This document shows, in pieces, positions 1 through 61,555 of a DNA stretch of 64,000 nucleotides. The DNA is from Escherichia coli. GTDB lineage: Bacteria; Pseudomonadota; Gammaproteobacteria; Enterobacterales; Enterobacteriaceae. Positions within the stretch are counted from its first letter, which is position 1, and the number at the start of each line of letters is the position of its first letter. A program made the translations under genes and the position numbers. Under the pieces are notes generated by a model that saw only the letters and a program-made list of their open reading frames with translations, ran no database searches and was not told where the DNA came from. Location: NCBI RefSeq assembly GCF_003334405.1, contig NZ_QOWM01000005.1; one strand, given 5' to 3'.

Positions 1-453
1 GAACTCGTTGATTTTGCCTGCACCTAACAGTTGGATCAGCTCCGCCAGCGCATTGTGATAAATATCGTAATTACGTTTGATCTCTGCCGCTGCGGCGGTG
101 CTCTGACGCGGGTCACGCGGCAACGCTTCGTAATCCGCCCAGTTTTTTTCCGCCTGTTTCAGCGAAATACTGGCACTCTCCATCAGCTCAGCAACGGTTG
201 AACCGCTACCAATATTATTCTGATCCATCATGTAGCGGATACCCGCGCGGTTGAGGGTGTTACGCGTCTGCAACAACGCGACCCAGCTGCCATTCAGCGT
301 GGATTGCTGCTGGCGAATGGTTTGTAAAACAGTGAAATTTTCTTTGTCATTCTTTAAGGCATTAAAGAACAGACCGCCTGATGTCAGTTGTAAAAGGCCA
401 AAAACGGCCAAAACCAGCAGTAAGCTGGTCACAATTTTGATACGTTTTAACAT
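1..453 (-). CDS. tsr: methyl-accepting chemotaxis protein I (serine sensor), N-terminal part; gene continues beyond window start
   Basis: Reverse translation from 453 gives [40 protein letters not shown]..., recognisable as the Tsr N-terminus; no stop before position 1. Confidence 0.85.
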
Positions 454-483
454 GGTTTCTCTTTCCTGTGGACCGATGCAAGA

Positions 484-510
484 TTTTCGGCCAGGAAAGG
501 AAAAACTTTA
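484..510 (-). promoter_or_regulatory. sigma-28 (FliA)-type promoter upstream of tsr
   Basis: On the minus strand reads TAAAGTTT-N11-GCCGAAAA, matching the class 3 flagellar promoter consensus TAAAGTTT-N11-GCCGATAA. Confidence 0.55.
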
Positions 511-601
511 TGAATATCCCGCGGAGATTACGCCGAGTAATTTTATTCACACTCTGAATTTAAAAAGCCATTATTTACATAAATTACTCACAATATAAAT
601 A

Positions 602-617
602 TGTGATATGAATCACA
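602..617. promoter_or_regulatory. CRP-like binding site in the tsr/btsT divergent intergenic region
   Basis: TGTGA-tatgaa-TCACA, perfect match to the CRP core consensus, embedded in a longer palindrome 597-623. Confidence 0.5.
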
Positions 618-681
618 TATTTATCGTCACTTAAACGACGCCTTTGCCGCTCAACCGCAAAACTGACCGCTTACATCCCTA

Positions 682-710
682 AAATAACCACTCAGTTATT
701 TACCTTACTT
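682..710 (+). promoter_or_regulatory. BtsR (YehT, LytTR-type) direct-repeat binding site upstream of btsT
   Basis: ACCGCTTA-N13-ACCACTCA, matching the recalled motif ACC(G/A)CT(C/T)A repeated with a 13 bp spacer. Confidence 0.5.
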
Positions 711-829
711 TACGCGCGCGTAACTCTGGCAACATCACTACAGGATAGCGGTCAATTTACCTCCTCAAACGCAACGCAAACCTAGAACGGCTTCGGCCAA
801 CTATTAATCAATACATGCCAGGTTTTACT

Positions 830-2980
830 ATGGATACTAAAAAGATATTCAAGCACATACCCTGGGTGATTCTCGGAATCATCGGTGCATTCTGCCTCGC
901 GGTAGTTGCATTACGTCGGGGGGAGCACGTCAGCGCCCTGTGGATCGTGGTCGCCTCTGTGTCGGTGTATCTGGTGGCGTATCGCTACTACAGTCTGTAC
1001 ATCGCCCAGAAGGTGATGAAACTCGACCCCACGCGCGCGACGCCTGCGGTTATTAACAACGACGGTTTGAACTACGTTCCGACCAACCGTTACGTGTTGT
1101 TTGGTCACCACTTCGCCGCTATCGCCGGTGCTGGTCCGCTGGTGGGTCCGGTTCTCGCCGCGCAGATGGGCTACCTGCCTGGCACGCTGTGGCTGCTGGC
1201 GGGGGTCGTGCTGGCCGGTGCGGTTCAGGACTTTATGGTGCTGTTTATCTCCTCTCGCCGTAATGGCGCATCTCTTGGTGAGATGATCAAAGAAGAGATG
1301 GGACCAGTACCGGGGACTATCGCGCTGTTTGGCTGTTTCTTAATCATGATCATCATCCTCGCCGTCCTGGCGCTGATTGTGGTTAAAGCCCTGGCCGAAA
1401 GTCCGTGGGGTGTCTTCACCGTTTGCTCAACCGTACCGATTGCGCTGTTTATGGGTATCTACATGCGCTTTATTCGTCCGGGGCGTGTGGGTGAAGTCTC
1501 TGTCATTGGTATCGTGCTGCTGGTTGCCTCTATCTACTTCGGTGGCGTGATTGCTCACGATCCGTACTGGGGTCCGGCACTGACCTTTAAAGACACCACC
1601 ATTACCTTCGCGCTGATTGGCTATGCGTTTGTTTCCGCACTGCTGCCAGTGTGGCTGATCCTCGCACCGCGCGACTATCTGGCAACCTTCCTGAAAATCG
1701 GCGTTATCGTCGGCCTGGCGCTGGGTATCGTGGTGCTGAACCCGGAACTGAAAATGCCTGCCATGACCCAGTACATTGACGGTACTGGCCCGCTGTGGAA
1801 AGGCGCTCTGTTCCCGTTCCTGTTCATCACCATCGCCTGTGGTGCGGTATCTGGCTTCCACGCGCTGATCTCTTCCGGTACGACGCCAAAACTGCTGGCT
1901 AATGAAACCGACGCGCGTTTCATCGGCTACGGCGCAATGCTGATGGAGTCCTTCGTGGCGATTATGGCGCTGGTTGCTGCGTCCATCATCGAACCGGGTC
2001 TTTACTTCGCGATGAACACCCCGCCTGCTGGCCTTGGCATCACCATGCCTAACCTGCATGAAATGGGGGGCGAGAACGCGCCGATCATCATGGCGCAGCT
2101 GAAAGACGTTACCGCACACGCGGCAGCGACCGTCAGCTCCTGGGGCTTCGTGATTTCGCCAGAGCAGATCCTGCAAACCGCGAAAGACATTGGTGAGCCT
2201 TCTGTCCTGAACCGTGCAGGTGGTGCGCCGACGCTGGCGGTAGGTATCGCTCACGTGTTCCACAAAGTGCTGCCGATGGCTGACATGGGCTTCTGGTATC
2301 ACTTCGGTATTCTGTTCGAAGCACTGTTCATCCTGACCGCGCTGGATGCGGGTACCCGTTCTGGCCGCTTTATGCTGCAAGACCTGCTGGGTAACTTCAT
2401 CCCGTTCCTGAAAAAAACCGACTCTCTGGTTGCCGGTATCATCGGTACTGCGGGCTGTGTGGGTCTGTGGGGCTACCTGCTGTATCAGGGCGTGGTCGAT
2501 CCGCTGGGCGGCGTTAAGAGCCTGTGGCCGCTGTTCGGTATTTCCAACCAGATGCTGGCAGCCGTAGCGCTGGTACTGGGCACCGTTGTGCTGATTAAGA
2601 TGAAGCGCACCCAATACATCTGGGTAACTGTTGTTCCGGCTGTATGGCTGCTTATCTGCACCACCTGGGCGCTGGGCCTGAAACTGTTCAGCACCAACCC
2701 GCAGATGGAAGGCTTCTTCTACATGGCAAGCCAGTACAAAGAGAAGATTGCTAACGGTACTGACCTGACGACGCAGCAGATTGCCAACATGAACCACATC
2801 GTTGTGAACAACTACACCAACGCAGGTCTGAGTATTCTGTTCCTGATTGTGGTGTACAGCATCATCTTCTACGGTTTCAAAACCTGGCTTGCGGTGCGTA
2901 ACAGCGACAAACGTACTGACAAAGAAACACCGTACGTTCCAATCCCGGAAGGCGGCGTGAAGATCTCTTCGCACCACTAA
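830..2980 (+). CDS. btsT: pyruvate/H+ symporter, CstA family
   Basis: ORF 815..2980; start placed at MDTKKIFKHIPWVILG to give 716 aa; polytopic membrane protein recognisable as YjiY/BtsT. Confidence 0.9.
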   Translation: MDTKKIFKHIPWVILGIIGAFCLAVVALRRGEHVSALWIVVASVSVYLVAYRYYSLYIAQKVMKLDPTRATPAVINNDGLNYVPTNRYVLFGHHFAAIAGAGPLVGPVLAAQMGYLPGTLWLLAGVVLAGAVQDFMVLFISSRRNGASLGEMIKEEMGPVPGTIALFGCFLIMIIILAVLALIVVKALAESPWGVFTVCSTVPIALFMGIYMRFIRPGRVGEVSVIGIVLLVASIYFGGVIAHDPYWGPALTFKDTTITFALIGYAFVSALLPVWLILAPRDYLATFLKIGVIVGLALGIVVLNPELKMPAMTQYIDGTGPLWKGALFPFLFITIACGAVSGFHALISSGTTPKLLANETDARFIGYGAMLMESFVAIMALVAASIIEPGLYFAMNTPPAGLGITMPNLHEMGGENAPIIMAQLKDVTAHAAATVSSWGFVISPEQILQTAKDIGEPSVLNRAGGAPTLAVGIAHVFHKVLPMADMGFWYHFGILFEALFILTALDAGTRSGRFMLQDLLGNFIPFLKKTDSLVAGIIGTAGCVGLWGYLLYQGVVDPLGGVKSLWPLFGISNQMLAAVALVLGTVVLIKMKRTQYIWVTVVPAVWLLICTTWALGLKLFSTNPQMEGFFYMASQYKEKIANGTDLTTQQIANMNHIVVNNYTNAGLSILFLIVVYSIIFYGFKTWLAVRNSDKRTDKETPYVPIPEGGVKISSHH

Positions 2981-2988
2981 CCGTGTTT

Positions 2989-3016
2989 AGCCCCGCTTCG
3001 GCGGGGCTTTGTTCTT
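2989..3016 (+). terminator. rho-independent terminator after btsT
   Basis: GC hairpin agccccgc-ttcg-gcggggct followed by a T-rich run. Confidence 0.55.
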
Positions 3017-3029
3017 ATCAGAGTGAACT

Positions 3030-3233
3030 ATGTTTGGTAACTTAGGACAGGCAAAAAAATATCTCGGCCAGGCGGCGAAGATGTTGATTGGCATTCCAGA
3101 CTACGACAACTACGTCGAGCATATGAAGACCAACCATCCCGACAAGCCGTACATGAGCTATGAAGAATTCTTCCGCGAACGCCAGAACGCACGCTACGGC
3201 GGCGATGGTAAAGGCGGTATGCGCTGTTGTTAA
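3030..3233 (+). CDS. yjiX: small conserved protein YjiX (DUF466 family)
   Basis: 67 aa ORF immediately downstream of btsT, same strand; conserved partner of cstA-like genes. Confidence 0.8.
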
Positions 3234-3243
3234 TGGAGAGAGC

Positions 3244-4200
3244 ATGAACCCGATTGCAGTTACCCTACTCACCGGTTTTTTAGGCGCGGGCAAAACCACC
3301 CTGCTGCGCCATATTCTTAACGAACAACACGGCTACAAGATTGCCGTGATTGAAAACGAATTCGGCGAAGTCTCCGTTGATGATCAACTGATTGGCGACC
3401 GCGCCACGCAGATCAAAACGCTGACCAACGGCTGCATCTGCTGTTCGCGCTCCAACGAGCTGGAAGACGCACTACTCGACCTGCTGGATAATCTCGACAA
3501 GGGCAATATTCAGTTCGACCGTCTGGTCATTGAATGCACCGGCATGGCCGATCCCGGCCCGATTATTCAGACCTTTTTCTCCCATGAGATTTTATGCCAG
3601 CGCTACCTGCTGGACGGCGTGATTGCGCTGGTGGATGCGGTACATGCCGATGAGCAGATGAACCAGTTCACCATCGCCCAGTCCCAGGTTGGCTACGCCG
3701 ACCGTATTCTGCTGACGAAAACCGACGTCGCAGGCGAAGCAGAGAAACTGCGTGAACGCCTGGCGCGCATCAACGCCCGCGCACCGGTCTACACCGTTAC
3801 CCACGGCGATATCGACCTGGGCCTTCTGTTCAACACCAACGGTTTTATGCTGGAAGAAAACGTCGTCAGCACCAAACCGCGTTTCCACTTTATCACGGAC
3901 AAACAAAACGATATTTCGTCGATTGTGGTGGAACTGGATTACCCGGTAGATATCAGCGAAGTTTCCCGGGTGATGGAAAACCTGCTGCTGGAGTCGGCGG
4001 ATAAACTACTGCGTTACAAAGGGATGCTATGGATTGACGGCGAACCTAACCGCCTGCTATTCCAGGGCGTCCAACGCCTCTACAGCGCCGACTGGGACCG
4101 CCCGTGGGGCGATGAAAAACCGCATAGCACGATGGTGTTTATCGGGATTCAGTTGCCGGAGGAAGAGATTCGGGCAGCGTTTGCGGGGTTGAGGAAGTAA
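3244..4200 (+). CDS. yjiA: COG0523/CobW-family GTPase (metal-binding)
   Basis: ORF 3160..4200; start at MNPIAVTLLTGFLGAGKTT (Walker A GAGKTT); CICC metal-binding motif. Confidence 0.9.
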   Translation: MNPIAVTLLTGFLGAGKTTLLRHILNEQHGYKIAVIENEFGEVSVDDQLIGDRATQIKTLTNGCICCSRSNELEDALLDLLDNLDKGNIQFDRLVIECTGMADPGPIIQTFFSHEILCQRYLLDGVIALVDAVHADEQMNQFTIAQSQVGYADRILLTKTDVAGEAEKLRERLARINARAPVYTVTHGDIDLGLLFNTNGFMLEENVVSTKPRFHFITDKQNDISSIVVELDYPVDISEVSRVMENLLLESADKLLRYKGMLWIDGEPNRLLFQGVQRLYSADWDRPWGDEKPHSTMVFIGIQLPEEEIRAAFAGLRK

Positions 4201-4210
4201 TTTTGGATGA

Positions 4211-4245
4211 TGGCCGCCATGTGGCGGCCTGAATTATTTTTTGTT
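4211..4245. terminator. hairpin plus T-tract between convergent yjiA and brnA
   Basis: ggccgccatgtggcggcc inverted repeat followed by ttattttttg. Confidence 0.45.
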
Positions 4246-4536
4246 CTGATCGCGCAGCATCGCTTCACGTAAAATTGCGTTCAGGCGAGTTTGATAGCCT
4301 TTACCTGGTCGCTTCAACCATTCCATCACATCAGCATCAATACGCACCGAAGCCTGAGTTTTCAATGGCCGATAAAACTTACCGCGTTCGGCGTTAGACC
4401 ATTGCTCATCGCTGGAAGGTGGGATATCACTGTAATCAATATCTTCGTCGGATTTATTCGCCAGCGCCTTCAGTTCGGCCTCATGCTGCACATCGAGTGT
4501 AGAGGAGGTCCCTCGTTTATGTTTAACCATGCTCAT
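4234..4536 (-). CDS. BrnA-like antitoxin (DUF4415-type)
   Basis: ORF 4234..4623 trimmed to MSMVKHKRG...; start overlaps the stop of the upstream toxin reading frame, typical toxin-antitoxin coupling. Confidence 0.65.
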   Translation of the reverse strand: MSMVKHKRGTSSTLDVQHEAELKALANKSDEDIDYSDIPPSSDEQWSNAERGKFYRPLKTQASVRIDADVMEWLKRPGKGYQTRLNAILREAMLRDQNKK

Positions 4537-4808
4537 AGCGATTCCTCTCTTTACGATCTGCTTTTCGTGCACTGATGATTCGAATAATTTCATTTCCGCT
4601 TTCGAAACGGATGGTATGCGCAACCAGAATAACCACGATGCCGTAATGTCTGCCAGCGATACTCACCGTTTTCTATGCGTTCTTGCTGTGACAAATGTTG
4701 TGGATCATCAAACAATAACACCGCATCTTCAAAGCGGATGCCATGTTTCACCCGATTACTTTTGGCCTTGTTTTCATCCCATTCAAACTCCATTGGCATA
4801 ATTGCCAT
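4523..4808 (-). pseudogene. BrnT-like toxin (DUF497 family) interrupted by a +1 frameshift
   Basis: N-terminal frame (ORF 4590..4826) gives MEFEWDENKAKSNRVKHGIRFEDA...WQTLRH then runs out of frame; the C-terminal part GIVVILVAHTIRFESGNEIIRIISARKADRKERNRYEHG is in another frame ending at 4523. Confidence 0.55.
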
Positions 4809-4997
4809 CCCTAATTGTATATACAAAAATGTATCTACAATTATTCTGCAATTATAGCGTTGATGTTGGAAATAGCATCACGTTTCGAATAATCAACCAT
4901 GAAATTGACAATGAGTAAGTTGGACTTGATTCATCCAATAGAATTTCTCGCCTGACATGGCACACTAAACACCTCGCTGTCGGGTAATGACTCCAAC

Positions 4998-5501
4998 TTA
5001 CTGATAGTGTTTTATGTTCAGATAATGCCCGATGACCTTGTCATGCAGCTCCACCGATTTTGAGAACGACAGTGACTTCCGTCCCAGCCTTGCCAGATGT
5101 TGTCTCAGATTCAGATTATGTCGCTCAATGCGCTGAGTGTAACGCTTGCTGATAACGTGCAGCTTTCCCTTCAGGCGTGATTCATACAGCGGCCAGCCAT
5201 CCGTCATCTATACCACGACCTCAAAGGCCGACAGCAGGCTCAGAAGACGTTCCAGTGTGGCCAGAGTGCGTTCACCGAAGACGTGCGCCACAACCGTCCT
5301 CCGTATCCTGTCATACGCGTAAAACAGCCAGCGCTGACGTGATTTAGCACCGACGTAGCCCCACTGTTCGTCCATTTCAGCGCAGACAATCACATCACTG
5401 CCCGGTTGTATGCGCGAGGTTACCGACTGCGGCCTGAGTTTTTTAAGTGACGTAAAACCGTGTTGAGGCCAACGCCCATAATGCGTGCACTGGCGCGACA
5501 T
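4998..5501 (-). pseudogene. insB: IS1 insB reading frame with an internal in-frame stop
   Basis: ORF track splits it into 5208..5501 (97 aa) and 4998..5207 (69 aa) in the same frame, separated by a TAG codon directly followed by ATG. Confidence 0.55.
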
Positions 5502-5695
5502 CCGACGCCATTCATGGCCATATCAATGATTTTCTGGTGCGTACCGGGCTGAGAGGCGGTGTAAGTGAACTGTAGTTGCCATGTTTTACGGCAATGAGAG
5601 CAGAGATAGCGCTGATGTCCGGCAGTGCTTTTGCCGTTACGCACCACGCCTTCAGTAGCGGAGCAGGAAGGACATCTGATGGAAATGGAAGCCAC
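5420..5695 (-). CDS. insA: IS1 InsA
   Basis: 91 aa [43 protein letters not shown]... Confidence 0.9.
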
Positions 5696-5751
5696 GCAAG
5701 CACCTTAAAATCACCATCATACACTAAATCAGTAAGTTGGCAGCATTACCC

Positions 5752-5847
5752 GGATTCCATAATGATTCCACGCCCCGTTATGACAAATCTGCCGCCGATC
5801 TTGCCTGGCAAAGGACACTGAAATGGTTCGATAAATATCTCTCCTGA
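5752..5847 (+). pseudogene. 3' remnant of a dienelactone-hydrolase-like gene truncated by IS1
   Basis: Frame directly abutting the IS1 end reads [35 protein letters not shown], resembling the C-terminus of DLH-family hydrolases; only 31 codons. Confidence 0.3.
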
Positions 5848-5992
5848 TAGGTTTATCTCTTACGGGATTACGTCTTAAACAAGCATGAAAAAATAGCGTG
5901 CGCAAAAGTCGTTCTTTGCCTAAAATATCGCTATATATGGCGATATATAGCGAATAAAGTGAACGATGAATAACCATTTTGGTAAAGGCTTA

Positions 5993-7225
5993 ATGGCGGG
6001 ATTAAAAGCAACGCATGCCGCCACGCTGTTTTTCCCGATGGAGTTGATTTTGTATGATTTTGCCGCGTACCTGTCGACGGACCTGATTCAGCCGGGGATC
6101 ATTAATGTGGTCCGTGATTTTAATGCCGATGTCAGTCTGGCCCCGGCAGCCGTCAGTCTCTATCTCGCGGGCGGTATGGCGTTACAGTGGCTGCTGGGGC
6201 CGCTTTCCGACAGGATTGGCCGCAGGCCGGTGCTGATTACCGGGGCGCTAATATTTACCCTTGCCTGCGCTGCGACAATGTTCACAACGTCTATGACACA
6301 GTTTCTTATCGCGCGTGCAATTCAGGGCACCAGTATCTGTTTTATTGCCACCGTTGGTTATGTCACGGTGCAGGAGGCGTTCGGCCAGACAAAAGGGATC
6401 AGGTTGATGGCGATTATCACCTCCATCGTACTGATTGCGCCGATTATTGGCCCGCTTTCCGGCGCAGCTCTGATGCACTTTGTGCACTGGAAAGTCCTTT
6501 TTGCCATCATTGCGGTTATGGGGTTTATCTCATTTGTTGGCTTACTGCTGGCGATGCCAGAGACGGTGAAGCGCGGCGCGGTTCCATTTAGCGCCAAAAG
6601 CGTCTTGCGCGATTTTCGTAATGTCTTTTGCAATCGGCTGTTCCTCTTTGGCGCAGCAACCATCTCTTTAAGCTATATCCCAATGATGAGTTGGGTGGCT
6701 GTCTCGCCGGTGATCCTGATCGACGCGGGCGGCTTAACAACTTCGCAGTTCGCCTGGACACAGGTTCCGGTGTTCGGCGCGGTGATTGTCGCGAATGCCA
6801 TCGTGGCGCGTTTCGTTAAAGATCCAACCGAACCGCGCTTCATCTGGCGTGCCGTACCCATTCAACTGGTCGGCCTCGCGCTGTTGATTATCGGCAATCT
6901 GCTGTCACCGCACGTCTGGCTGTGGTCGGTGCTGGGCACCAGTTTGTATGCTTTCGGGATTGGTTTGATCTTCCCGACCTTATTCCGCTTTACGCTTTTT
7001 TCCAATAACTTACCGAAAGGGACCGTCTCCGCATCGCTGAATATGGTGATCCTGATGGTGATGTCTGTCTCGGTCGAAATCGGCCGCTGGCTGTGGTTTA
7101 ACGGCGGTCGCTTGCCGTTTCATCTGTTAGCCGTCGTGGCGGGCGTTATCGTCGTTTTCACCCTGGCAGGATTGCTTAATCGCGTGCGCCAACATCAGGC
7201 TGCCGAGCTGGCGGAGGAGCGGTGA
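5993..7225 (+). CDS. mdtM: MFS multidrug efflux transporter
   Basis: ORF 5966..7225; 12-TMS MFS protein recognisable as MdtM (YjiO); start chosen to give 410 aa. Confidence 0.85.
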
Positions 7226-7265
7226 TTTTTGCGCGATCCTGCCGTCAGGCTCTATTCTTAACGTT

Positions 7266-8546
7266 ATGAATAAACTCATTGAACTCAGACGCGCCAAAAT
7301 GTTGGCGCTCTCTTTACTGCTTATCGCCGCTGCTACCTTTGTCGTTACGCTGTTTTTGCCGCCCAATTTTTGGGTGAGCGGCGTGAAGGCGATTGCTGAA
7401 GCGGCGATGGTCGGCGCGCTGGCGGACTGGTTTGCGGTGGTGGCGCTGTTTCGCCGCGTGCCGATTCCGATCATTTCTCGTCATACGGCGATTATCCCGC
7501 GTAATAAAGACCGGATTGGCGAAAATCTCGGCCAGTTCGTGCAGGAAAAATTTCTCGATACCCAGTCGCTGGTGGCATTGATTCGACGTCACGAACCGGC
7601 GTTGTTGATTGGCAACTGGTTTAGTCAGCCGGAGAACGCCCGCCGCGTTGGTCAGCATCTGTTGCAGATCATGAGCGGTTTTCTTGAACTGACCGATGAT
7701 GCGCGTATTCAGCGCCTGCTTAAGCGCGCGGTCCATCGGGCGATTGATAAGGTCGATCTTTCCGGCACCAGTGCGTTGATGCTGGAGAGTATGACCAAAA
7801 ACAATCGTCATCAGGTGCTGCTGGATACGCTGATCGCACAGTTGATCGCCCTTCTCCAGCGCGATAAATCGCGCAAGTTTATTGCCCAGCAAATTGTTCG
7901 CTGGCTGGAGAGCGAGCATCCGCTGAAAGCCAAAATTTTGCCTACTGAATGGCTGGGCGAACATAGCGCGGAGTTGGTTTCTGACGCGGTGAATTCTTTG
8001 CTTGATGATATCAGCCGCGATCGTGCGCATCAGATCCGCCATGCATTTGATCGCGCCACCTTTGCCCTGATCGACAAGTTGAAAAACGATCCGGAAATGG
8101 CAGCGCGAGCCGATGCCGTAAAAAGTTATCTGAAAGAAGATGAAGCTTTTAACCGCTATCTCAGTGAATTGTGGGGGGATTTACGGGAATGGCTGAAAGC
8201 GGATATCAACAGTGAAGATTCTCGTGTGAAAGAACGTATCGCGCGGGCGGGTCAATGGTTTGGCGAAACGTTAATTGCCGATGATGCCTTGCGGGCATCG
8301 TTAAATGGTCACCTGGAACAAGCCGCGCACCGCGTCGCGCCTGAGTTTTCCGCATTCCTGACGCGCCACATCAGCGATACAGTAAAAAGCTGGGATGCTC
8401 GGGATATGTCGCGGCAAATCGAGTTAAATATCGGCAAAGATCTGCAGTTTATCCGTGTCAACGGTACGCTGGTTGGCGGTTGTATTGGGCTAATTTTATA
8501 TTTGTTGTCGCAGCTCCCGGCCTTGTTCCCCCTCAGCAATTTTTAG
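7266..8546 (+). CDS. yjiN: DUF445-family inner membrane protein
   Basis: 426 aa ORF, conserved neighbour of mdtM. Confidence 0.8.
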
Positions 8547-8661
8547 AAATCCATGAAAAACTAAGTGGCTAACCGCGAGAGAGATCAAATAAACCACACT
8601 AAAAGAATGGTAATAATGTGGCCTCTTTTCATTATCTCCCGTGGTACGGGGAAGGAAAATC

Positions 8662-11769
<3,108 letters not shown>

Positions 11770-11836
11770 CAGGCTGGCATATTTCACCTTTTTGTTATTA
11801 ACTTGTTAACAACAAAAATGACATACAAGGTTAAAC

Positions 11837-13015
11837 ATGCCTTCGTCCTCGCATCCCGTAGAACGCTTTTCTTTCAGCACCGCGCTTTTCGGGATGCTGG
11901 TTCTGACCTTAGGTATGGGATTAGGTCGCTTCCTTTATACGCCTATGTTGCCCGTCATGATGGCGGAAGGGGCGTTTTCATTTAGCCAGCTCTCGTGGAT
12001 TGCCAGCGGCAACTATGCGGGGTATCTGGCTGGCAGTCTGCTATTTTCGTTTGGCGCATTTCACCAGCCGTCGCGCCTGCGCCCATTTCTGTTGGTTTCT
12101 GCCCTGGCGAGCGGGTTGTTGATCCTCGCAATGGCATGGTTGCCGCCATTTATTCTGGTGTTATTGATTCGCTTCCTGGCGGGTGTCGCCAGCGCCGGTA
12201 TGCTGATTTTTGGTTCGACGCTGATTATGCAGCACACGCGCCATCCTTTTGTGCTGGCAGCTTTGTTTTCTGGCGTTGGCATTGGCATTGCACTGGGCAA
12301 CGAATATGTTCTGGCAGGCCTGCATTTTGCCTTCTCCTCGCAAACGTTATGGCAAGGCGCCGGGGCGCTTTCTGGCATGATGCTGATTGCACTTACGCTT
12401 TTAATGCCCTCGAAAAAACACGCCATCGCACCAATGCCATTGGCAAAAACGGAGCAACAGATAATGAGCTGGTGGTTACTGGCTATTCTGTACGGCCTGG
12501 CGGGATTTGGTTATATCATCGTCGCGACTTACCTGCCGCTCATGGCGAAAGATGCAGGCTCACCATTGTTAACCGCCCATCTCTGGACGTTAGTCGGCTT
12601 ATCAATTGTGCCAGGCTGCTTTGGCTGGCTATGGGCAGCAAAACGTTGGGGGGCTTTGCCTTGCCTGACGGCGAATTTGCTGGTGCAGGCTATCAGTGTG
12701 CTGCTTACTCTCGCCAGCGACTCTCCTCTCTTGCTTATCATTAGTAGTATCGGTTTTGGCGGTACCTTTATGGGCACGACATCTCTGGTGATGACTATCG
12801 CCCGCCAACTGAGCGTTCCGGGAAATCTCAATCTTTTAGGCTTTGTGACGCTCATTTACGGCATTGGACAAATCCTCGGCCCGGCGCTGACCAGTATGCT
12901 CGGCAATGGAACATCGGCGCTTGCCAGCGCCACTCTCTGCGGCGCGGCGGCGTTGTTTATTGCTGCGCTTATCAGCACAGTGCAATTATTTAAGCTACAA
13001 GTGGTCACTTCATGA
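11837..13015 (+). CDS. yjiJ: MFS-type transporter (DUF1228)
   Basis: 392 aa hydrophobic ORF. Confidence 0.8.
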
Positions 13016-37838: not shown

Positions 37839-38489
37839 TTAATTTGATTTATTCGCATCCATCAGCGCTTTTAACTGCTCCGGCGTAAACGGTGGTTTGC
37901 GTCGGTGCAACATCGCATGGCAATTAGGGTACACAGGCAGCAAATCATTAACTGGATCCAGCTGGTAATCCTCTTTAATGGCTGACAGCGGCACCAGGTG
38001 ATGCACATGGATAAAGCCTTCAGCGATATCACCATAGATCTTCACCAGATCAACACCGCATACGTTGCACTGGCATCCATGATGTTCGACCGCTTTATCT
38101 CGGGCCTTTTTATCGCGTTCATAGCGGTTTACTGTCACCTTTATCGCCGCACCTTCAAGGTATGTCTCCTGCGACGGCAACTCATCCGGGAACAGAACGT
38201 CGGCTATGGGAGCCGCAGCGGCTTTATCCAGATGAATATGAAATCCCTGCTCTATGAGTAGCTTGACACATTTAGATTTTATTCCGCCGGTGAAATCCGC
38301 AGGGGTAAATTGCGTCCCCGTCATCAATGTCGCTGCGATGCCAGCAATCGCCTTCGAGGGGTAACGTCGGCCATGATATTCAATCTCATACAACCGCGCA
38401 GGCTGGAACTGATGAGTTTCTCCCGCATCCCATAAATGGATAGCTTCGATGATATACCGCCGCGGAAGATGATCAGGGAGTTTATTCAT
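37839..38489 (-). CDS. HNH-family nuclease with an uncharacterised ~135 aa N-terminal domain
   Basis: 216 aa; C-terminal GCQCNVCG...IHVHHLVPL...NDLLPVYPNCHAMLH is a zinc-ribbon HNH motif; convergent with nanS. Confidence 0.6.
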   Translation of the reverse strand: MNKLPDHLPRRYIIEAIHLWDAGETHQFQPARLYEIEYHGRRYPSKAIAGIAATLMTGTQFTPADFTGGIKSKCVKLLIEQGFHIHLDKAAAAPIADVLFPDELPSQETYLEGAAIKVTVNRYERDKKARDKAVEHHGCQCNVCGVDLVKIYGDIAEGFIHVHHLVPLSAIKEDYQLDPVNDLLPVYPNCHAMLHRRKPPFTPEQLKALMDANKSN

Positions 38490-38568: not shown

Positions 38569-38811
38569 TTGAACAGCAGAAAATTTGCGAGCATGATCGC
38601 AATTATTTCACTGCCAGGGATATCAATAGCTTCCAGTAAATCGCTACAGCAGGCAATTGCCAATATAAAAATCTGGCACAAGGGTGAACAGCGCGCGCCG
38701 CATAAGCCATTGTTATTGCTATACGTATTAGCGGGATACCTGAATGGACATCCGCGCCTTTTCGATTATTGTAGTGGAACAGTCTACGAGGATGCAGTTC
38801 GAAGTGAGTAA
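38569..38811 (+). other. unassigned 80 aa ORF divergent from the HNH gene
   Basis: Contains ...KIWHKGEQRAPHKPLLLLYVLAGYLNGHPRLF...; no confident family assignment. Confidence 0.25.
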
Positions 38812-39255
38812 GTAAAGGTTGCTGGAAACGATCAATGCCGCCATACAATGATTTTTTAGGATCAACAATGAGTAATAAAAACTACGAAAGTCACCGCAAA
38901 GCGATTGTTAGTAAAGGTATACCACCCGCTCTATTAAATAGGCTCACCAATTCGGATGTTCAGGTGATCAATACCTTCTTAACACGAGTGAGCAAACTGG
39001 AACTATCTCAACAAGAGAAAGACTGGATCATAAAAATCATCTCTATGGTTTAGACAATTTCAGCCTTGTAGCCTTTCAAGGGTTTTGTGTGGGTACAAAC
39101 ATTATCGAATCGGGGTATAGCCGCAGCTGTAGCTGTATCCACATCAGTAAGTTGATGTAGGTTGACTTAGGTTGAGCGAAAAATAGCGAAAAGCCTTGTG
39201 TGGCGCGGATTTCAGTCATAAAAAAACGTCCGTTGATGTCTATTGATGTTCCGAT

Positions 39256-39293
39256 GGTGCGAAGGTGCAAAGGTGCGAAGGCCGGACTCAAAC
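39256..39293. repeat. degenerate tRNA-Leu 3'-end-like sequence with a partial tandem duplication; probable island attachment-site remnant
   Basis: ggtgcgaaggccggactcaaac resembles the reverse complement of a tRNA-Leu acceptor/T-arm end (TGGTGCCGAAGGCCGGACTCGAACC); ggtgcgaagg also occurs immediately upstream. Confidence 0.4.
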
Positions 39294-39770
39294 ATGTGAC
39301 TTAACCTCATGATTTAAAATTGTTAATAATAAACAATATCATCTTATACCAACACAGATACCAACACGAAAAATCACTGGTTTTCGGCATCGAACCAGGA
39401 CAATCAGCTCCTGATTGAGATACCGAGCTCTGTTACTCGTCATCTTCCTCGACAGGCTTCATTGCATCAAGTAGTACTCGCACCATCGCGATAGAACCAA
39501 TCCGGATAAAAGCATCTTCTCCATCTATATCTGTTAACTGATATCGCTCACTTGATGCCGGATAATTGTGTCGATTTGCAGCAGTGAACTCTTTCGTACA
39601 GCCAGAATGCGGCGGATGCTGGTTGAGCAGATAACGTCCGTATTCTCGTTGACCACTTCCGGACGGTAGGCTGTGATATCAGACATAATCGATATTCCTT
39701 TTTGCAGATAAATGAAAATGCCAGCCCTGTTCAGGCTGGCGTCAGTGGAATGAAGTCTGGTGAGTAAGAC

Positions 39771-39968
39771 TCACCGGTTCTGGTGCTGAAGCTGCAGTTG
39801 GCGCAGGGTACGGATATCCTCTCTGGCCTGTTCGATACAGGGCAACAGTGCTGCTGAATCCGTTTTATCCTCATTGTTGTCAAAGATAATTCCCGATTCG
39901 CAGTCGATATTGTCCTGCAGCCACGCAATCAGAATATCCAGTGCGGTTTCCGTGGTTAATGATTTCAT
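39771..39968 (-). CDS. small DUF957-like island protein
   Basis: 65 aa MKSLTTETALDILIAWLQDNIDCESG..., typical last gene of CP4-type toxin-antitoxin modules. Confidence 0.4.
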   Translation of the reverse strand: MKSLTTETALDILIAWLQDNIDCESGIIFDNNEDKTDSAALLPCIEQAREDIRTLRQLQLQHQNR

Positions 39969-39979
39969 GTTGTTCCTGG

Positions 39980-40468
39980 TTACCAGTTGAAAGTGGGTAA
40001 ACCCGGCAGGCATTCAGCGCTGGCATCCAGATGAATGAGACTGACGCCATAACGTCGGGTAAGTGTGATAACCAGACGACGGAACGTTTTTGACAGCCCC
40101 AGGCGTTTAAGCCGCAGAACCGGATATGACCACGCATCGGTACGTAACAGATATCCGCTACCTGTGAAATGAATCCATTCTGATTCACCAACGTCACTGG
40201 TCTGATGCGACAGCGAGTACAGCCAGGCGTTATCCTTTTCCGTGATATGTGCGGTACTGCAGCGTATGCCGGCAAGGGTTGCAAACGGTGGTAGTGTGCA
40301 GGTTGACTGTTGGTCGGATTCCTCCACCACGCGGAGTGAATAACCGTTTTCAGCGACCTTGTTAATCAGTTCAGTGAGATTAACACCATCGACGTCAACG
40401 ACAATTCGCCCCATGTTCAGTGCCTGCACATTAATTCTGTCGGCTTCCAGCATCAGGGAAAGTTTCAT
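39980..40468 (-). CDS. YeeW-like (DUF5983-type) protein
   Basis: 162 aa, start overlaps the toxin gene stop by 4 nt. Confidence 0.45.
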
Positions 40469-40839
40469 CGTTTCTCCGGATGCTTACCCAGGGTAATGTT
40501 ATTTACCGTTCTGTAATTGTCGCGGGTCATCAGGCCGGTCGCCCTGCGAGCCCGGAGGATATCAATACTGTTTATTAACTGAGAGCGGGGACAAGTGCTG
40601 AATCCCGGCTGGTCGGTACGCACCAGCGCGTATTTTTCCACGAGAAAATTCACCGCATCACACAGTGAAATGCCAGCTTCAATATGCTGCTCAATCACAC
40701 GTTCATCGGCGAACGGTGTGTCATTCAGTGTAAGGCCGTAATGCTGGCCCAGTAGTCGGGAGAGCAGAGTCTGCCAGATGGTGACGGGAGACGGGCAGCT
40801 CGATGCCTCCCGTACGTGTGTATCGGGTAATGTTTTCAT
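40465..40839 (-). CDS. CbtA/YkfI/YpjF-family toxin
   Basis: 124 aa; [45 protein letters not shown] highly similar to recalled CbtA. Confidence 0.8.
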
Positions 40840-40928
40840 ACTGAAGGTTTTCCTGATATGCAGAGATGAAAAATGGAAAAGTGGCGTGGTGAAAGCACCA
40901 GGCCGGAGCAGAAGGTTATTCCGGTGGT

Positions 40929-41297
40929 TTACTTTTTCGTTTCGGGCGTCGGATAAACAGCCAGATAAACGTAACCACCGCTACCGAGAGTGTCAGCTTT
41001 GCAGGTCAGACCTTTTGCATACAGCGTGACGGTATGCTGATGGCGGGGATTCAGTTCACCGCTGGTGAGCATGAGTTCCAGTTGTTTCATCAGCAGCGGA
41101 AAGGCCTGGTCCAGGTGGTACGCATCTGCATCGCTGAACAGGCCTCTGATACCGGCGCGGTCGGCAAGGTAATGCAGGCGGTTACCCTCCTGCACCAGAC
41201 GGGCGCCGAAACAGGGCGTCACTGTGCAGGGTAGTCTCCACCAGGGATGGTCGTCATTGTCATCGGGATGCGTTGTCCCGGAAAGTGTGTCTGACAC
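40929..41297 (-). CDS. CbeA/YeeU-family antitoxin
   Basis: ORF 40929..41405 trimmed to GTG start (VSDTLSGTT...) for 122 aa; [34 protein letters not shown]. Confidence 0.8.
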
Positions 41298-41459
41298 GAT
41301 AAAATCCTCACAGAAAATCGGTGAATGATAGTTTAACGATGACGGGTCAGCCGGCGCGCAGACCGGCTTCGGTAAAGGTGTATTCGTTGATGAGCAGGAC
41401 CTCATCCACAGCGGCGTCTGAGCTCAGCCAGTCGTACTCGTTTTCCGGGTGACGGAACA

Positions 41460-41681
41460 TCAGTTCAGGGTGACGCTCATCAGCCGGACATACGGACCAA
41501 AACTGTCCTTACGGCGTTCTGCAAACACGGCCAGCACACCGGGAATATCCTGCACTTCACGACCGGTATACGCTTCAGCACTGCCGTGCCAGCGGTATTT
41601 GCCGGTACAGAACGGAAAAAGACGGGATGCCGGATGCTGACGGTGAATACGCATGGCTTCGCCACGGGTGATGATTTTCAT
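41460..41681 (-). CDS. YeeT-like (DUF987) protein
   Basis: 73 aa MKIITRGEAMRIHRQHPASRLFPFCTGKYRWHGSAEAYTGREVQDIPG... Confidence 0.65.
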   Translation of the reverse strand: MKIITRGEAMRIHRQHPASRLFPFCTGKYRWHGSAEAYTGREVQDIPGVLAVFAERRKDSFGPYVRLMSVTLN

Positions 41682-42149
41682 AGTGGGATACCTCTGAAGA
41701 CAGAAGATAAAAGTGAAAACAGGTGTGATGTGGTTGTGACGGGTTAAAGCAGACCATGTTCGGCAAAGGAGAAAACCTGGCTGCCACCGACTATCAGATG
41801 GTCCGGCACCCGGATAGCTGGAGGTACCGTCATGAGAGTTGAGCAGAATAATTTCAGGGACATGTTCTCCGTTTATCTCTCCGGCCCGCCGCAGACGCAG
41901 CATGTGTTTTGTGTATCCCCGGCGGCCCGGGTCGCGCACACGGGTCTGGCAGGCGAAGAATGGCTGAAAGCCTTCCCGCTGCAGGCTTTCCAGTACGGTG
42001 ATGGTGGGGATGTACGTATAGTTCTGGCTTCGGGACGTGTGTTTATCTTCCCCGAAAATCCCCGGCACATAGTGCATCAGTTCTTCGTGTGTCAGCGGAC
42101 GGTCACGGCGTATCTGGTTCGCATAACCAAAACGACTGGCTAGTCGCAT
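41682..42149 (-). pseudogene. 5' fragment of a DUF932-like (YfjQ-type) gene, frameshifted and fused in-frame to the yeeT-like ORF
   Basis: First ~120 codons of ORF 41460..42149 (MRLASRFGYANQIRRDRPL...LLNSHDGTSSY) look DUF932-like, then lose resemblance. Confidence 0.4.
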
Positions 42150-42560
42150 AATTTGCTCCTTATCGGTGGTTAAGATTTACTGGTGTAATAAATGAAAAAG
42201 CCACGTCTCCCGGAGAAGACGCGGCCTGATGGGTGAAATGAATGACGTTTATTGTCTGAGAAGACCGTCACTGGCGAGCCGCGTATTAAGCACCTTTCCG
42301 GCATCGGGTTCAGAATTCCGGCAGCGCCAGCGTCGCTGACCTTCCGCGTTGCGGATAACCCGACGGAAATGCATTCCCGGGTCATCCTGGATAAACACAT
42401 TGCGGTAAGCGGTTATGACAGCAACCGCCTGCCCGTATGAGAAAGATCCTTCAGCCAGGACATACTCTGTGTAACCCGGCATATCTGTTTTCTCCTGATA
42501 AATAAAAAGCCTCTGCCACGCGTTGTGACAGAGGCTGAAGCATGAAACTGACTTCAGGGA

Positions 42561-43016
42561 TCAGTTAACGTTTTTTCCGGAAACGGTAATCAGCAGTGGA
42601 TGGTAGTCCTGGGGATTGAAAACCGATAACGGCAGACTGACACGATGGCCGTTACTTTCTTCAGTTGCTTTGATGATTTCGGTTGTGGCGACATTTTCCA
42701 CGCACTCCGTTTCCAGAAATGCGTCTGTGGTTCGCGTGGCATTACTGTCACCAAAAGCTTCCGTTTCCATTTTTCTGGTCACCAGCGTCTGACCATATTT
42801 GTCTTTGAGTTGCAGAGTGATGGTGAGGGGGCCAAATCCTTCATCGTTTCCGCCATTATCCAGCCGGAACTGGTAAGCACAAATATTTCCCGGGAGCCAT
42901 ATCGTATCTGTATTGCGTATACTGATGTAACGTTGATCCTGTGCCCGGAGTGGGGCAGACCACGTTAACCCCAGAATGAAGGCGGTAATCATGCAGGTTT
43001 TGAACAGGTGAATCAT
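42561..43016 (-). CDS. hypothetical secreted protein
   Basis: 151 aa with N-terminal signal-peptide-like hydrophobic segment ending ...APLRAQ. Confidence 0.45.
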   Translation of the reverse strand: MIHLFKTCMITAFILGLTWSAPLRAQDQRYISIRNTDTIWLPGNICAYQFRLDNGGNDEGFGPLTITLQLKDKYGQTLVTRKMETEAFGDSNATRTTDAFLETECVENVATTEIIKATEESNGHRVSLPLSVFNPQDYHPLLITVSGKNVN

Positions 43017-43091
43017 GGTATTTACCTCTCTGAGTCATGACGATGACACTGACAAATCAGGTGATAAAGCGTAAAAGGCGCAGAATAGCCG

Positions 43092-44057
43092 TTATGCCGG
43101 TAACTCCGGGGGTAATGCTTCTTCCAGTCGGTTAACCATATTGCCGAGATGGGATGCATCATATTCCATGACGGGGCGTTGCCTGATGATACTGACCACC
43201 AGTGGTTTGATTAACATATTGGTCGCGGCCCGTTGTTGTATACCGGCGGCGAAAATGATCTCCAGAGCATTCTGATCGATAACACGGGCCAGATTCTCGT
43301 TCAGATTTTCAATCTCATGTCCGGTCAGCAGGAAACTGCCGGCAAGCCATGTCACCTGCTCCTGAATCATTGCCAGAATTTTGACGCGATCTTCTTCAAC
43401 CAGCGCTCCGGCAATTTTTCCTGATACAGCGGAGGCAATCATTCCCCCCAGAACACCGCCAACCACACGCCCTGTCAGTGCACCAAATGGTCCCAGTGGA
43501 CTGAACAGTATTCCGCCCGCCACTGACCCGACAGCACCACCTGCCACACCGGAAGATGCCACGGCAAGATTCCTGATGAACTGCGTACCGGAGATCCGTC
43601 CCCGCAACATTTTGATCATGTCAGGGCCGGTTGTGACAGCTACCAGTGCCAGAGATGTCACCAGCGTACCCTTCATCACTTTGTTCAGGGCACTGATATT
43701 TCCTGCACCGGTCCCCTTCTGAAGAGCCAGTCGAACAGTCGGGCTGGCAGTCGAAAAATCAATGTGCTTCAGCATACCCTGAACAACACTGAGCCGGTGG
43801 AGTTGCTGGGTTGTGACGTAGACAGCCAGTGTGCGGGTGAAGGTTTTTCCTGCCTGGACAGCAGCTGTCTGCAGGGCAGCATCGCGATCGCCGGTGCTGA
43901 GCCAGAAGACCGATGCCGTCAGGGCAAAACTGATCCCTCCGGCCGCCAGACTGACAACCGAACCCTCGGCAATATCATAAGTGACCGATTCGATGGTCCC
44001 GAACCGGGTGATATTACGGGCCTGAGTATAAGTCAGATGAGCCATACACGCGGCTTC
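43092..44057 (-). pseudogene. C-terminal fragment of an unidentified glycine-zipper-rich island protein, fused in-frame to a truncated IS66 tnpC
   Basis: Last ~320 codons of ORF 43092..45068; [41 protein letters not shown]; unlike IS66 TnpC C-termini. Confidence 0.35.
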
Positions 44058-45950
44058 CGTTATTCTGCCGGATTCGTATAACGCCCGGTAACCACCGTAA
44101 GCATCGGCCTGAAGCACACCGCTGTAACCGGCCAGGTGATTTTGTGGATGGATACCTTTCCGGTCCGGACTGTACGCGAACCAGACCGCCGGGGGCATCT
44201 GTGAACCGGCGTTACGGTCATCACGGACGTAGACCCACAGCCGGGCTGTCCGGGTTTTACCGCTGCCCGGCTCCTGGACCGGGACGGGGATATCATCAGC
44301 ATGGACTTTACCGGGCATCAGCACATACTGGCGCAGGACGTCATACAGCGGCTCCAGCAGTTCAGCAACAGCACCTGTCCAGCGCCCCAGTGTGGCACGG
44401 CTCAGCTCCACTCCCTGACGACGGTATATTTCTGACTGGCGGTATAACGGCAGATGGTCTGCATATTTCCCGGTGACAACATGGGCCAGAAGCCCCGCTC
44501 CGGCATAACTGCGTGCAATGGGTTTTGAAGGTACTGGTGCCTGCACGATATGGTCGCACCGGCAACAGGCCTGTTTCGGACGTTGTGTTTCGATAACCTT
44601 AAAGGCGCTGCTGATAAGCTCCAGTTGCTCTGACACATCACATCCCAGAGAACTGAGTTCACCACCACAGGCAGGACAGCATTCCTCTTCCGGCCGGATA
44701 ACCCGGGTTTCACGGGGAAGTGAGGCCGGTAACGGTTTACGGGCTGAAGACTGGCGCAGGGCGGATGGCAGTACCGGGTCATATTGCTCACCCAGCGTTT
44801 CCGCCATTTCTTCCTGAAGTGCGCTGATTCGCTCCTGTGCTTCCTGTATCTGCCGTTCGGTTTTTGCACGAAGTTTTTCTGAGCTTTTACCGAACTGCAT
44901 ACGTTGCAGTTTCGCAACCAGCGCCTTCAGCCGGTTGATTTCGGAAGCATAAGCCGCCACCCGCTGTGAGAGCAGGCGGTTGTATTCAGCCATCTGGCGG
45001 ATGGTGTCCTGTTGCGTCTGCAACAGTGCCCGCAGGCGGGCGTTCTCATGAGCAAGTGAGGTGTCCATATCCTCACTTTACAACGGGTTATATGCGGATT
45101 CCAGCGCGTTCCGTTCGTTTCGGGTGCTTCCAGTTGATACCTTCAAGAAGCATGGATAACTGAGCCGGAGTAAGGTGCACCTTGCCGTCACGGGTGACTG
45201 GCCAGACGAAGCGGCCCCGCTCCAGGCGTTTGGTGAAGAGGCACAGTCCGTCACTGTCAGCCCACAACACTTTTATCTGGTCACCCCGGCGTCCGCGGAA
45301 GATGAACAGGTGTCCGGAGAACGGGTCATCCTTCAGGACGTTCTGAACTTTTGATGCCAGGCCGTTAAAGCCATTTCGCATATCGGTGATACCTGCAACC
45401 AGCCAGATACGCGAACCTGCAGGGAGAGATATCATCAGTGGCTGCTCCCTTTTATTTCGCGGATAAGTGTCTGTAATAACGCCGGCGTCAGTTTACCTTT
45501 AAGCCTGAGAGTTCCGGCCGGCAGAACCAGCTCACAACACAGACTGTCGGACGGTGTATTTATCTGCTCTGGTTCCTGTGCGGGGGCCGGGATTTTATTA
45601 TCCGGCTCCGGCGTTAACGTCACGGGAAGCAGTGCCGGCATATTTTTTCCGGAAGGCAGCAGGCCACCTTTCCGGTATTGATGGCGCCAGTTGAAGAGCA
45701 GGTTATCGTTGATTCCGTTTTCCCGGGCGATCTGCGCCACACAGGCTCCGGGCTGCAGTGACTGCTCCACTAAGGCGATTTTAAACTCATAAGGGAAGTT
45801 GGGCCGCCGGGGACGTTTTTTTACCACGGGGGCTTCGGATATAACGGTGCTTTCAGGACGTACGACTGGTACCGTGGAAAATTGTCCGTAACCCTCAGTA
45901 TCAGCTGTGAGGTAACGTTCCGGCACGGGACGCTCCGCTTCAATGGCAAT
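44058..45950 (-). mobile_element. IS66-family element, copy 1, truncated at the tnpC 3' side
   Basis: tnpA-like (45435..45926), tnpB (45088..45435; WLVAGITDMRNGFNGL) and first ~337 codons of tnpC (CCPACGG zinc-finger, through EAACMAHL); boundaries approximate. Confidence 0.65.
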
Positions 45951-61554: not shown

Positions 61555-61555
61555 C

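Follow-up and report, generated by a model that had tools for sequence, protein, structure and literature searches.

A probable fossil, 'empty' allele of the Escherichia coli immigration control region, associated with IS1 and carrying a copied yghX'-yghW' patch fused to mdtM

Variable and empty forms of the immigration control region (ICR) of Escherichia coli, in which deletions mediated by insertion sequences (IS) have taken part, are already well established, and the case described here refines that understanding. An 'empty site' in the ICR of E. coli C was reportedly described by Sibley and Raleigh in 2004. Deletions of adjacent DNA promoted by IS1 are said to have been found in the gal region by Reif and Saedler in 1975, and promoters created by IS1 are said to have been described by Prentki and colleagues in 1986. 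One fixed junction and a nested series of junctions formed from one end of the IS without target duplication are the classical signature of IS1-promoted adjacent deletion. The ICR is anchored by yjiA and yjiN, has been described as a recombination hot spot, contains a Type I system in only 36% of enterobacterial cases and includes brnAT among its toxin-antitoxin systems (PMC12707154). The ICR of Crooks has been changed by IS insertions, and W and Crooks are without restriction genes (PMC3032704; PMC12707154); yjiS, yjiR and yjiP/rpn are treated as conserved framework genes at the borders of the region (PMC4498929; PMC2481252). Here we describe the interval between yjiA and mdtM in a stretch of 64,000 nucleotides of E. 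coli contig NZ_QOWM01000005.1 (assembly GCF_003334405.1), the whole of which is called the window below. The interval probably represents a fossil 'empty' allele of the ICR (defence hotspot 36) that spreads horizontally. It is associated with an IS1 and carries a patch, yghX'-yghW', copied from elsewhere in the chromosome.

The window is oriented in reverse of the K-12 map order, and its genes are arranged as btsT (815-2980), yjiX (3030-3233), yjiA, the interval, mdtM, yjiN, yjiM and yjiL, which places the interval between the two ICR anchors (Table 1). From the stop codon of yjiA at 4200 to the RefSeq-style start of mdtM at 5993, the interval (4201-5992) is 1,792 bp long, compared with 19,389 bp from the yjiA stop to the mdtM start in K-12 MG1655, where it contains mrr, hsdRMS, symE/symR, mcrBC, yjiV, yjiT, yjiS, yjiR, rpnD and ytiE. 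These values and the MG1655 annotation agree with an earlier note on this DNA, which had given the gap as 1.8 kb and stated that its K-12 counterpart holds the ICR and several yji genes. Its further claim that the ICR is absent is also borne out, as tblastn of the window with K-12 McrBC, SymE, HsdRMS, Mrr and YjiR/S/T and with the Mrr-like, HsdMSR and Rpn proteins of Nissle 1917 gave no match, and thus no Type I or Type IV gene. The framework genes yjiP(rpn)-yjiR-yjiS, present on the mdtM side in K-12, Nissle 1917 and ws5-3, are gone as well. What is left are brnA, brnT, a 768-bp IS1 without target duplication and the 97-nt end of a hydrolase gene. The same note had listed a toxin-antitoxin pair, an IS1 and a gene fragment; all three parts are there, but the pair is not intact and the fragment is not isolated, being part of the larger yghX'-yghW' copy.

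Table 1. Features between the ICR anchors, with positions given in the 64,000-nucleotide window.
Feature	Position	Strand	Description and evidence
yjiA (GTPase)	3245-4200	+	Left ICR anchor (hotspot 36); open reading frame and RefSeq annotation of the identical B7A/H10407 region; PMC12707154
GC-rich terminator-like hairpin between convergent yjiA and brnA	4212-4229		7 G-C pairs, then a T-rich tail
brnA, antitoxin gene	4234-4536	-	Intact, 100 aa; Pfam BrnA_antitoxin PF14384, 3.1e-17; RefSeq name in relatives
brnT, toxin pseudogene	4523-4799	-	Alignment with B7A/H10407; split open reading frames
brnTA upstream region	4800-4982		Homology to ICR-bearing Nissle 1917 and ws5-3 stops exactly at 4982
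IS1 (IS1F-like)	4983-5750	-	768 bp; NF033558 transpos_IS1 matches for all three open reading frame pieces
yghX'	5751-5847	+	Last 32 codons and stop of a YghX-family dienelactone hydrolase; NF041440 YghX, 3e-14; 98-99% identity to the native gene
IS1-end-like stretch TAATGATTCCA	5760-5770	+	Native yghX coding sequence; 10/11 match to the IS1 terminus TAATGACTCCA; exactly 9 bp from the IS1 end
yghX-yghW spacer copy	5848-5965	+	Alignment with the native loci of K-12 and E. coli W
yghW'	5966-6013	+	First 16 YghW codons; native yghW translation and alignments; codons 17-18 lie within the microhomology
CATGCCG	6014-6020	+	7-bp yghW/mdtM microhomology; crossover point of the in-frame fusion
Chimeric yghW'-'mdtM open reading frame	5966-7225	+	419 aa from ATG 5966; RefSeq, 410 aa from ATG 5993
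yjiN	7266-8546	+	Right ICR anchor, conserved; PMC12707154

Among the 5,426 complete E. coli genomes surveyed, the junction yjiA-brnAT-IS1 was found in one place in 1,113 (20.5%), and three arrangements were distinguished by what follows the other end of the IS1. Type A is that of the window and is shared by the enterotoxigenic E. coli (ETEC) strains H10407 and B7A and by O25b:H4-ST131 (ST131 below); its yghW'-'mdtM fusion junction is present in 661 genomes and both IS1 flanks are as in the window in 662, which means that the fusion always comes with this IS1. In type B (448 genomes, for instance ESY001), the left junction and the IS1 are the same, and the right end of the IS1 is joined directly to native sequence 259 bp upstream of mdtM. 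Types A and B make up nearly all of the 1,113. In type C, which is rarer and is found in LHM10-1 (IS1 at 4397-5164 of its locus), the IS1 end is joined near ytiD, corresponding to window position 17669, and mdtM, yjiN, yjiM, yjiL, ytiA, yjiK, yjiJ, kptA, yjiH, yjiG, iadA, hypT and iraD are deleted as well. The right junctions of types A, B and C all begin directly after the IS1 terminal ...CATTACC. As the junction is shared by hundreds of independently assembled complete genomes, its structure is real and not a product of chance or artefact.

The IS1 at this junction is bounded by 23-bp terminal inverted repeats, GGTAATGACTCCAACTTACTGAT and GGTAATGCTGCCAACTTACTGAT, which match at 20 of 23 positions. 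Its insA (5420-5695) is intact and the A6C frameshift motif TTAAAAAAC is present on the minus strand near 5445. In insB, a TAG at 5208-5210 stands in place of Trp, for which LHM10-1 and HS30-1 have TGG. The element has the length, repeats, open reading frames and motif of an IS1, without an intact transposase, and owing to the TAG it is now inactive; an 'internal stop' is noted by RefSeq for the same IS1 in B7A, H10407, ESY001 and ST131. No direct repeat of 8-9 bp surrounds the IS1: the left flank tcgctgtcg (4974-4982) and the right flank cggattcca (5751-5759), both as read in the earlier note, agree at 2 of 9 positions.

The DNA that continues the left flank is found in Nissle 1917 and ws5-3, in which brnAT is followed by a gene for a 388-aa endonuclease (Pfam Mrr_cat, 3.8e-29; PADLOC mREase_IV/PDC-S02), hsdM, hsdS, hsdR, symE, yjiS, yjiR, rpn and mdtM. 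Homology between the window and these two strains stops precisely at the edge of the IS1, 13 bp ahead of the GTG codon with which the Mrr-like gene begins. HsdM of this cassette is only 24% identical to that of EcoKI, and the nuclease domain of the endonuclease shares 31% identity with K-12 Mrr. Measured on the Nissle 1917 sequence, 11,270 bp are missing from type B, and type A lacks 11,550 bp and gains a patch of ~263 bp. Judged by these alignments, the lost cassette would be the brnAT-linked set (Mrr-like gene, non-IA hsdMSR, symE, yjiS, yjiR and rpn) and not that of K-12. The earlier note had described the loss as lying where K-12 has mrr-hsdRMS-mcrBC, which is correct for the map position but not for the DNA that was lost.

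The origin of the right flank was found by a search with the two IS1 flanks joined, followed by alignment to the native loci of K-12 and E. coli W; the native regions upstream of mdtM in K-12, Nissle 1917 and ESY001 were aligned as well. Positions 5751-5992 are 98-99% identical to the 3' end of yghX, the yghX-yghW spacer and the 5' end of yghW, and the colinearity with the native locus (last 32 codons of yghX, 118-bp spacer and start of yghW) extends to 6013. The native yghX-yghW site, at ~3.146 Mb in K-12, is present in essentially every E. coli. The donor of the 263-270-bp copy lies ~1.4 Mb away, and the patch is a duplicate: type A genomes have two places that match it. Native yghX is uninterrupted at the patch target site in 5,414 of the 5,426 genomes. 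None of the 5,426 has an IS1 inserted in yghX at the patch boundary, the top matches being native yghX that continues through the IS1-end-like stretch, and no genome of the collection has the reciprocal mdtM'-'yghW junction. Outside the IS1, two IS1-end-like matches are found in the window, compared with ~0.76 expected per 64 kb on both strands.

At its other end, the patch is fused to mdtM. The chimeric protein reads YghW residues 1-18 and then ATLFFPM..., which is MdtM from residue 10 onward, and its MdtM part is identical to that of K-12 at 393 of 402 residues. With the in-frame switch at CATGCCG, the native mdtM promoter, 5' untranslated region and codons 1-9 are lost. RefSeq annotates a 'dienelactone hydrolase, partial' and 'MdtM' as separate entries and does not mention the fusion.

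MdtM is an antiporter for bile salts and multiple drugs and at alkaline pH. To be transcribed in type A strains, mdtM would now have to use one of two candidates, the yghW promoter region brought in with the patch or a hybrid promoter at the IS1 flank. The yghW promoter region in the patch keeps its -35 element TTGCCT (5916-5921), and the K-12 version, TTGCCT-17-GACAAT, is listed as an RpoD 'constitutive promoter' (PMC3946193). The promoter-like hybrid site, at 5737-5766 and facing mdtM, combines TTGGCA in the terminal repeat of the IS1 with AATGAT in the yghX' flank at a spacing of 18 bp. Only two substitutions, A5956 and A5958, separate the patch from both sampled native alleles (K-12 and W). 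They turn the yghW Shine-Dalgarno sequence GAGGTG into AAAGTG, and translation may as a result be initiated at ATG 5993 instead. At 5928-5953, the -10 region of yghW is overlapped by a perfect 26-nt palindrome, TCGCTATATATGGCGATATATAGCGA, which was copied with the patch; it may be an operator, and the native allele of K-12 differs from it at two central bases. We consider it rather unlikely that the patch, which is carried by ~12% of complete E. coli genomes including ST131, H10407 and B7A, is a selected regulatory rewiring of mdtM rather than neutral scar tissue. If it were selected, altered mdtM expression could have effects on fitness in the gut or on tolerance of drugs, and could be part of the reason why the empty ICR allele spread across phylogroups.

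Based on these junctions, we propose that the ancestral locus would have been yjiA-brnA-brnT, the gene for the Mrr-like Type IV endonuclease, non-IA hsdMSR, symE, yjiS, yjiR, rpn and mdtM. In a first step, an IS1 located 13 bp upstream of the Mrr-like gene would have promoted, from its insA-proximal terminal inverted repeat (IRL), a deletion of ~11.3 kb, up to a point 259 bp upstream of mdtM, that gave rise to type B, and a further deletion from the same IS1 end would have given rise to type C. In a second step, in the lineage leading to type A and from a type B-like state, the same IS1 end would have been joined to, or primed on, yghX, so that ~263 bp of yghX'-spacer-yghW' were copied in and then closed onto mdtM at the 7-bp CATGCCG, a non-reciprocal copy-in. 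The second step most likely began with a one-ended transposition that was aborted, or with a break at the IS1 end, and was completed by repair through microhomology-mediated template switching.

This proposal accords with several features of the junctions. One junction is fixed, those on the opposite side are variable, and all of them start from the exact IS1 end without target duplication, which fits IS1-promoted adjacent deletion. With the left junction shared by 1,113 genomes, at least three right junctions and no simple insertion in the 5,426 genomes, the preference of the earlier note for IS1-mediated deletion or recombination over simple insertion is upheld. The 10/11 match to the IS1 end, 9 bp from the junction, points to the IS1 transposase choosing the yghX site. 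The second junction of type A lies 286 bp from the type B end-point, and this proximity, the intact native yghX and the lack of yghX::IS1 and of a reciprocal junction in the collection favour a local, non-reciprocal copy-in.

Other observations weigh against the proposal. A simple-insertion junction, consisting of the IS1, the 9-bp repeat and the Mrr-like gene, as expected of a precursor with the IS next to the DNA that was later deleted, was found in none of the 5,426 genomes; the first step is therefore read from its end-points only. Of the copies examined, all five of type A and that of ESY001 (type B) have the insB nonsense codon, and those of HS30-1 (type B) and LHM10-1 (type C) do not. 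If the stop is older than type A, no transposase would have been available in cis for the joining to yghX, which favours recombination or a transposase acting in trans. The transposase may have acted in trans, the stop codon may have been moved by recombination, or the event may have been purely recombinational. Recombination has also occurred within the locus and the window is a mosaic, so that the order of events cannot be safely read from single-nucleotide polymorphisms. With regard to the promoter, the -10 element of the patch is GGCGAT, as in the native allele of E. coli W, and not GACAAT as in K-12, and a consensus promoter scan of the plus strand of the spacer copy found no site; the putative promoter function therefore depends on homology to the K-12 data from systematic evolution of ligands by exponential enrichment.

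The strongest rival, which we nevertheless consider unlikely, though conceivable for types B and C, is RecA-dependent recombination between two direct copies of IS1, one upstream of the Mrr-like gene and the other upstream of mdtM (near ytiD for type C), without any role of the transposase. The product would be one hybrid IS1 whose flanks do not match, so the missing direct repeat is explained equally well; IS1 is abundant, with a median of 11 places per genome, and an IS1A copy is found 13 kb away, near yjiC/uxuR, in ST131 and LHM10-1. However, each of the three right junctions would need its own second insertion of IS1, no example of which was sampled, and no genome has an IS1 with its target repeat beside an intact cassette. 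Recombination between IS1 copies also leaves the 263-bp ectopic patch of type A, closed by microhomology, unexplained, and no IS1 was found in native yghX.

Much less probable is that the IS1 is a bystander, which transposed in the ordinary way into a locus that was already empty and whose target duplication has since decayed. Nothing specific speaks for it beyond the frequency of IS1 in E. coli, and the two flanks match at 2 of 9 positions although the flanking DNA is 99-100% conserved among the carriers. In addition, in the ICR-bearing strains the left flank runs on into the Mrr-like gene from precisely the position of the IS1 boundary, and each of the three right flanks is derived from a different, unrelated place. 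Among the matches listed, every match to the joined flanks is split in two by the IS1, so that no IS1-free empty site was found there. That the strain lost a K-12-type cassette, mrr-hsdRMS(EcoKI)-mcrBC, is hardly credible: K-12 does carry this cassette at the same map position, but it is without brnAT, and the two strains examined that have brnAT and an intact ICR carry a different cassette, which continues the left flank of the window and whose HsdM and Mrr-like proteins are 24-31% identical to those of K-12.

The empty allele is not confined to one lineage. In ST131, type A is located on a segment of ~7 kb (~16.5-23.5 kb of the ST131 locus) that is 99.6-100% identical to the window and B7A and 91-97% identical to the B2 strain Nissle 1917, while the DNA on both sides of the segment is ~100% Nissle-like. 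The segment is a recombinant, of a non-B2 type in a Nissle-like B2 background, and these identities show that homologous recombination has carried the empty allele from one phylogroup to another. Mosaicism is also seen in the window: the left flank, including an 11-bp deletion in brnT, has 2 differing sites in 4.3 kb when compared with LHM10-1 and HS30-1, the IS1 and patch do not differ from those of B7A, and mdtM, from ~6448 onward, is 2% diverged from that of B7A. The exact haplotype, in which the 11-bp brnT deletion is combined with the type A right side, is present in none of the 5,426 complete genomes, and no complete RefSeq E. coli genome matches the full window, the best reaching 85% for 39-64 kb. 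The mosaicism explains why the exact haplotype is missing from the collection. That haplotype's absence is also what could be cited for an assembly artefact, in which two unrelated contigs were joined across a repeated IS1, and the earlier note had named such a misassembly as an alternative. It can be set aside with near certainty: the DNA on the two sides of the IS1 comes from one chromosomal neighbourhood, 661 complete genomes have the type A junction, and the IS1 is identical to the copies of B7A and H10407, being specific to this locus and not a consensus of other copies. The mosaic pattern, moreover, fits the high recombination of the region (PMC12707154).

BrnT and BrnA constitute a type II toxin-antitoxin system whose prototype is that of Brucella abortus and in which BrnA counteracts the ribonuclease activity of BrnT. 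In the window, brnT is located directly upstream of brnA and overlaps it, and it carries the 11-bp deletion (ACCAGGCCGAT on the plus strand) between 4646 and 4647, which shifts the frame after codon 51 of 95; the versions of B7A and H10407 encode 95 aa, and the intact BrnT of relatives matches PF04365 BrnT_toxin (4.7e-24) over residues 7-88. With brnT frameshifted and brnA intact, the window has an orphan antitoxin gene and a toxin pseudogene: the BrnA_antitoxin domain is present, and a full-length BrnT_toxin domain is not. Neither BrnT nor BrnA was matched in NCBIfam or PADLOC scans, in which respect they differ from the Pfam search. The deletion is present in 24 of 1,781 brnT-bearing complete genomes, including LHM10-1 and HS30-1, where brnT is annotated as 'frameshifted'. 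Of these two carriers, LHM10-1 is of type C and HS30-1 of type B, and the IS1 is intact in both. Slippage between direct repeats was considered as the origin of the deletion and rejected, as no fitting repeat flanks it. An Rfam scan of window positions 1-12000 gave no match at the gathering threshold.

Farther along the window, dndBCDE are found at 58838-63906, with DndB matching TIGR03233 (2.6e-138) and DndD matching TIGR03185 (7e-152), DndE 100% identical at 63556-63906 by tblastn and dndC annotated in the identical DNA of B7A and JNEC-KY180. The dnd segment, which is 100% identical to that of B7A, is part of hotspot 37 on the leuX side, a known location of Dnd systems (PMC12707154). In line with the earlier note, this is the only DNA-modification defence found in the window. 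A tblastn search with DptFGH found no match in the window, which ends 94 nt past dndE; in JNEC-KY180, dptFGH are found further on. Between nanS and the island are an intact gene for a 216-aa HNH endonuclease (37839-38489, minus strand), whose protein has no match in PADLOC or NCBIfam, and beside it a 50-codon remnant (~38626-38775, plus strand) of what is annotated in JNEC-KY180 as a 'phosphorothioated DNA-binding restriction endonuclease'. The region of ~39000-47800 is a CP4-like prophage remnant with cbtA/yeeU-type toxin-antitoxin genes, an antirestriction gene and a JAB-domain gene. It is broken by IS66-family elements and has ~2 kb more IS66-related sequence than the closest complete genome.

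The consequences of the empty allele extend beyond this strain. About one in five complete E. coli genomes carries an IS1-associated empty allele and has no restriction system at the classical ICR, and the carriers include ST131 and reference ETEC, which is relevant to plasmid uptake and to the choice of strategies for cloning and transformation. Loss of yjiPRS is possible even though these framework genes are supposed to be conserved, and the right junctions form a clean, naturally occurring set of nested end-points that all start at one IS1 end. In 661 genomes, mdtM is a yghW'-'mdtM chimera that automated annotation labels as plain MdtM, and extrapolation of K-12 mdtM regulation to these strains would give the wrong promoter. 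In the literature searched, we found no description of a yghW-mdtM fusion or of a link between yjiA and brnT, and the loss of yjiPRS, the nested series of IS1 end-points and the yghX'-yghW' patch with its mdtM chimera appear to be undescribed there.

When compared with the empty ICRs of E. coli C, W and Crooks, the locus occupies the same yjiA-yjiN hotspot and likewise has no hsd, mcr or mrr genes. It differs in that the deletion also takes the framework genes yjiS, yjiR and yjiP/rpn and reaches into mdtM; in E. coli W, unlike the window, pac is found in the place of the cassette. With the BrnT/BrnA type II system it shares both domain genes and the arrangement of an upstream toxin gene that overlaps the gene for the antitoxin, but its toxin gene is frameshifted and only the antitoxin gene is intact. 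As in IS1-promoted adjacent deletions, the IS is kept, several nested end-points arise from one IS end and no target duplication is found, whereas here the deletions are known from end-points alone and the type A end is an ectopic copy closed by microhomology.

The type A junctions also resemble the products of homology-facilitated illegitimate recombination and microhomology-mediated template switching, in that one junction is at a defined element and the other at a 7-bp microhomology, and in that the outcome is non-reciprocal and leaves the donor locus intact. Unlike in those models, the donor is intragenomic, ~1.4 Mb away, and not incoming foreign DNA, and the IS1-end-like target suggests an involvement of transposase that is not part of them. 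Finally, the locus can be compared with the promoters that IS elements create for efflux and resistance genes. Here too the native promoter, that of mdtM, has been replaced, and a -35-like TTGGCA in the IS1 end is placed next to a -10-like AATGAT in the flank. The main replacement, however, would be the copied yghW promoter, ribosome-binding site and N-terminus and not the IS itself.

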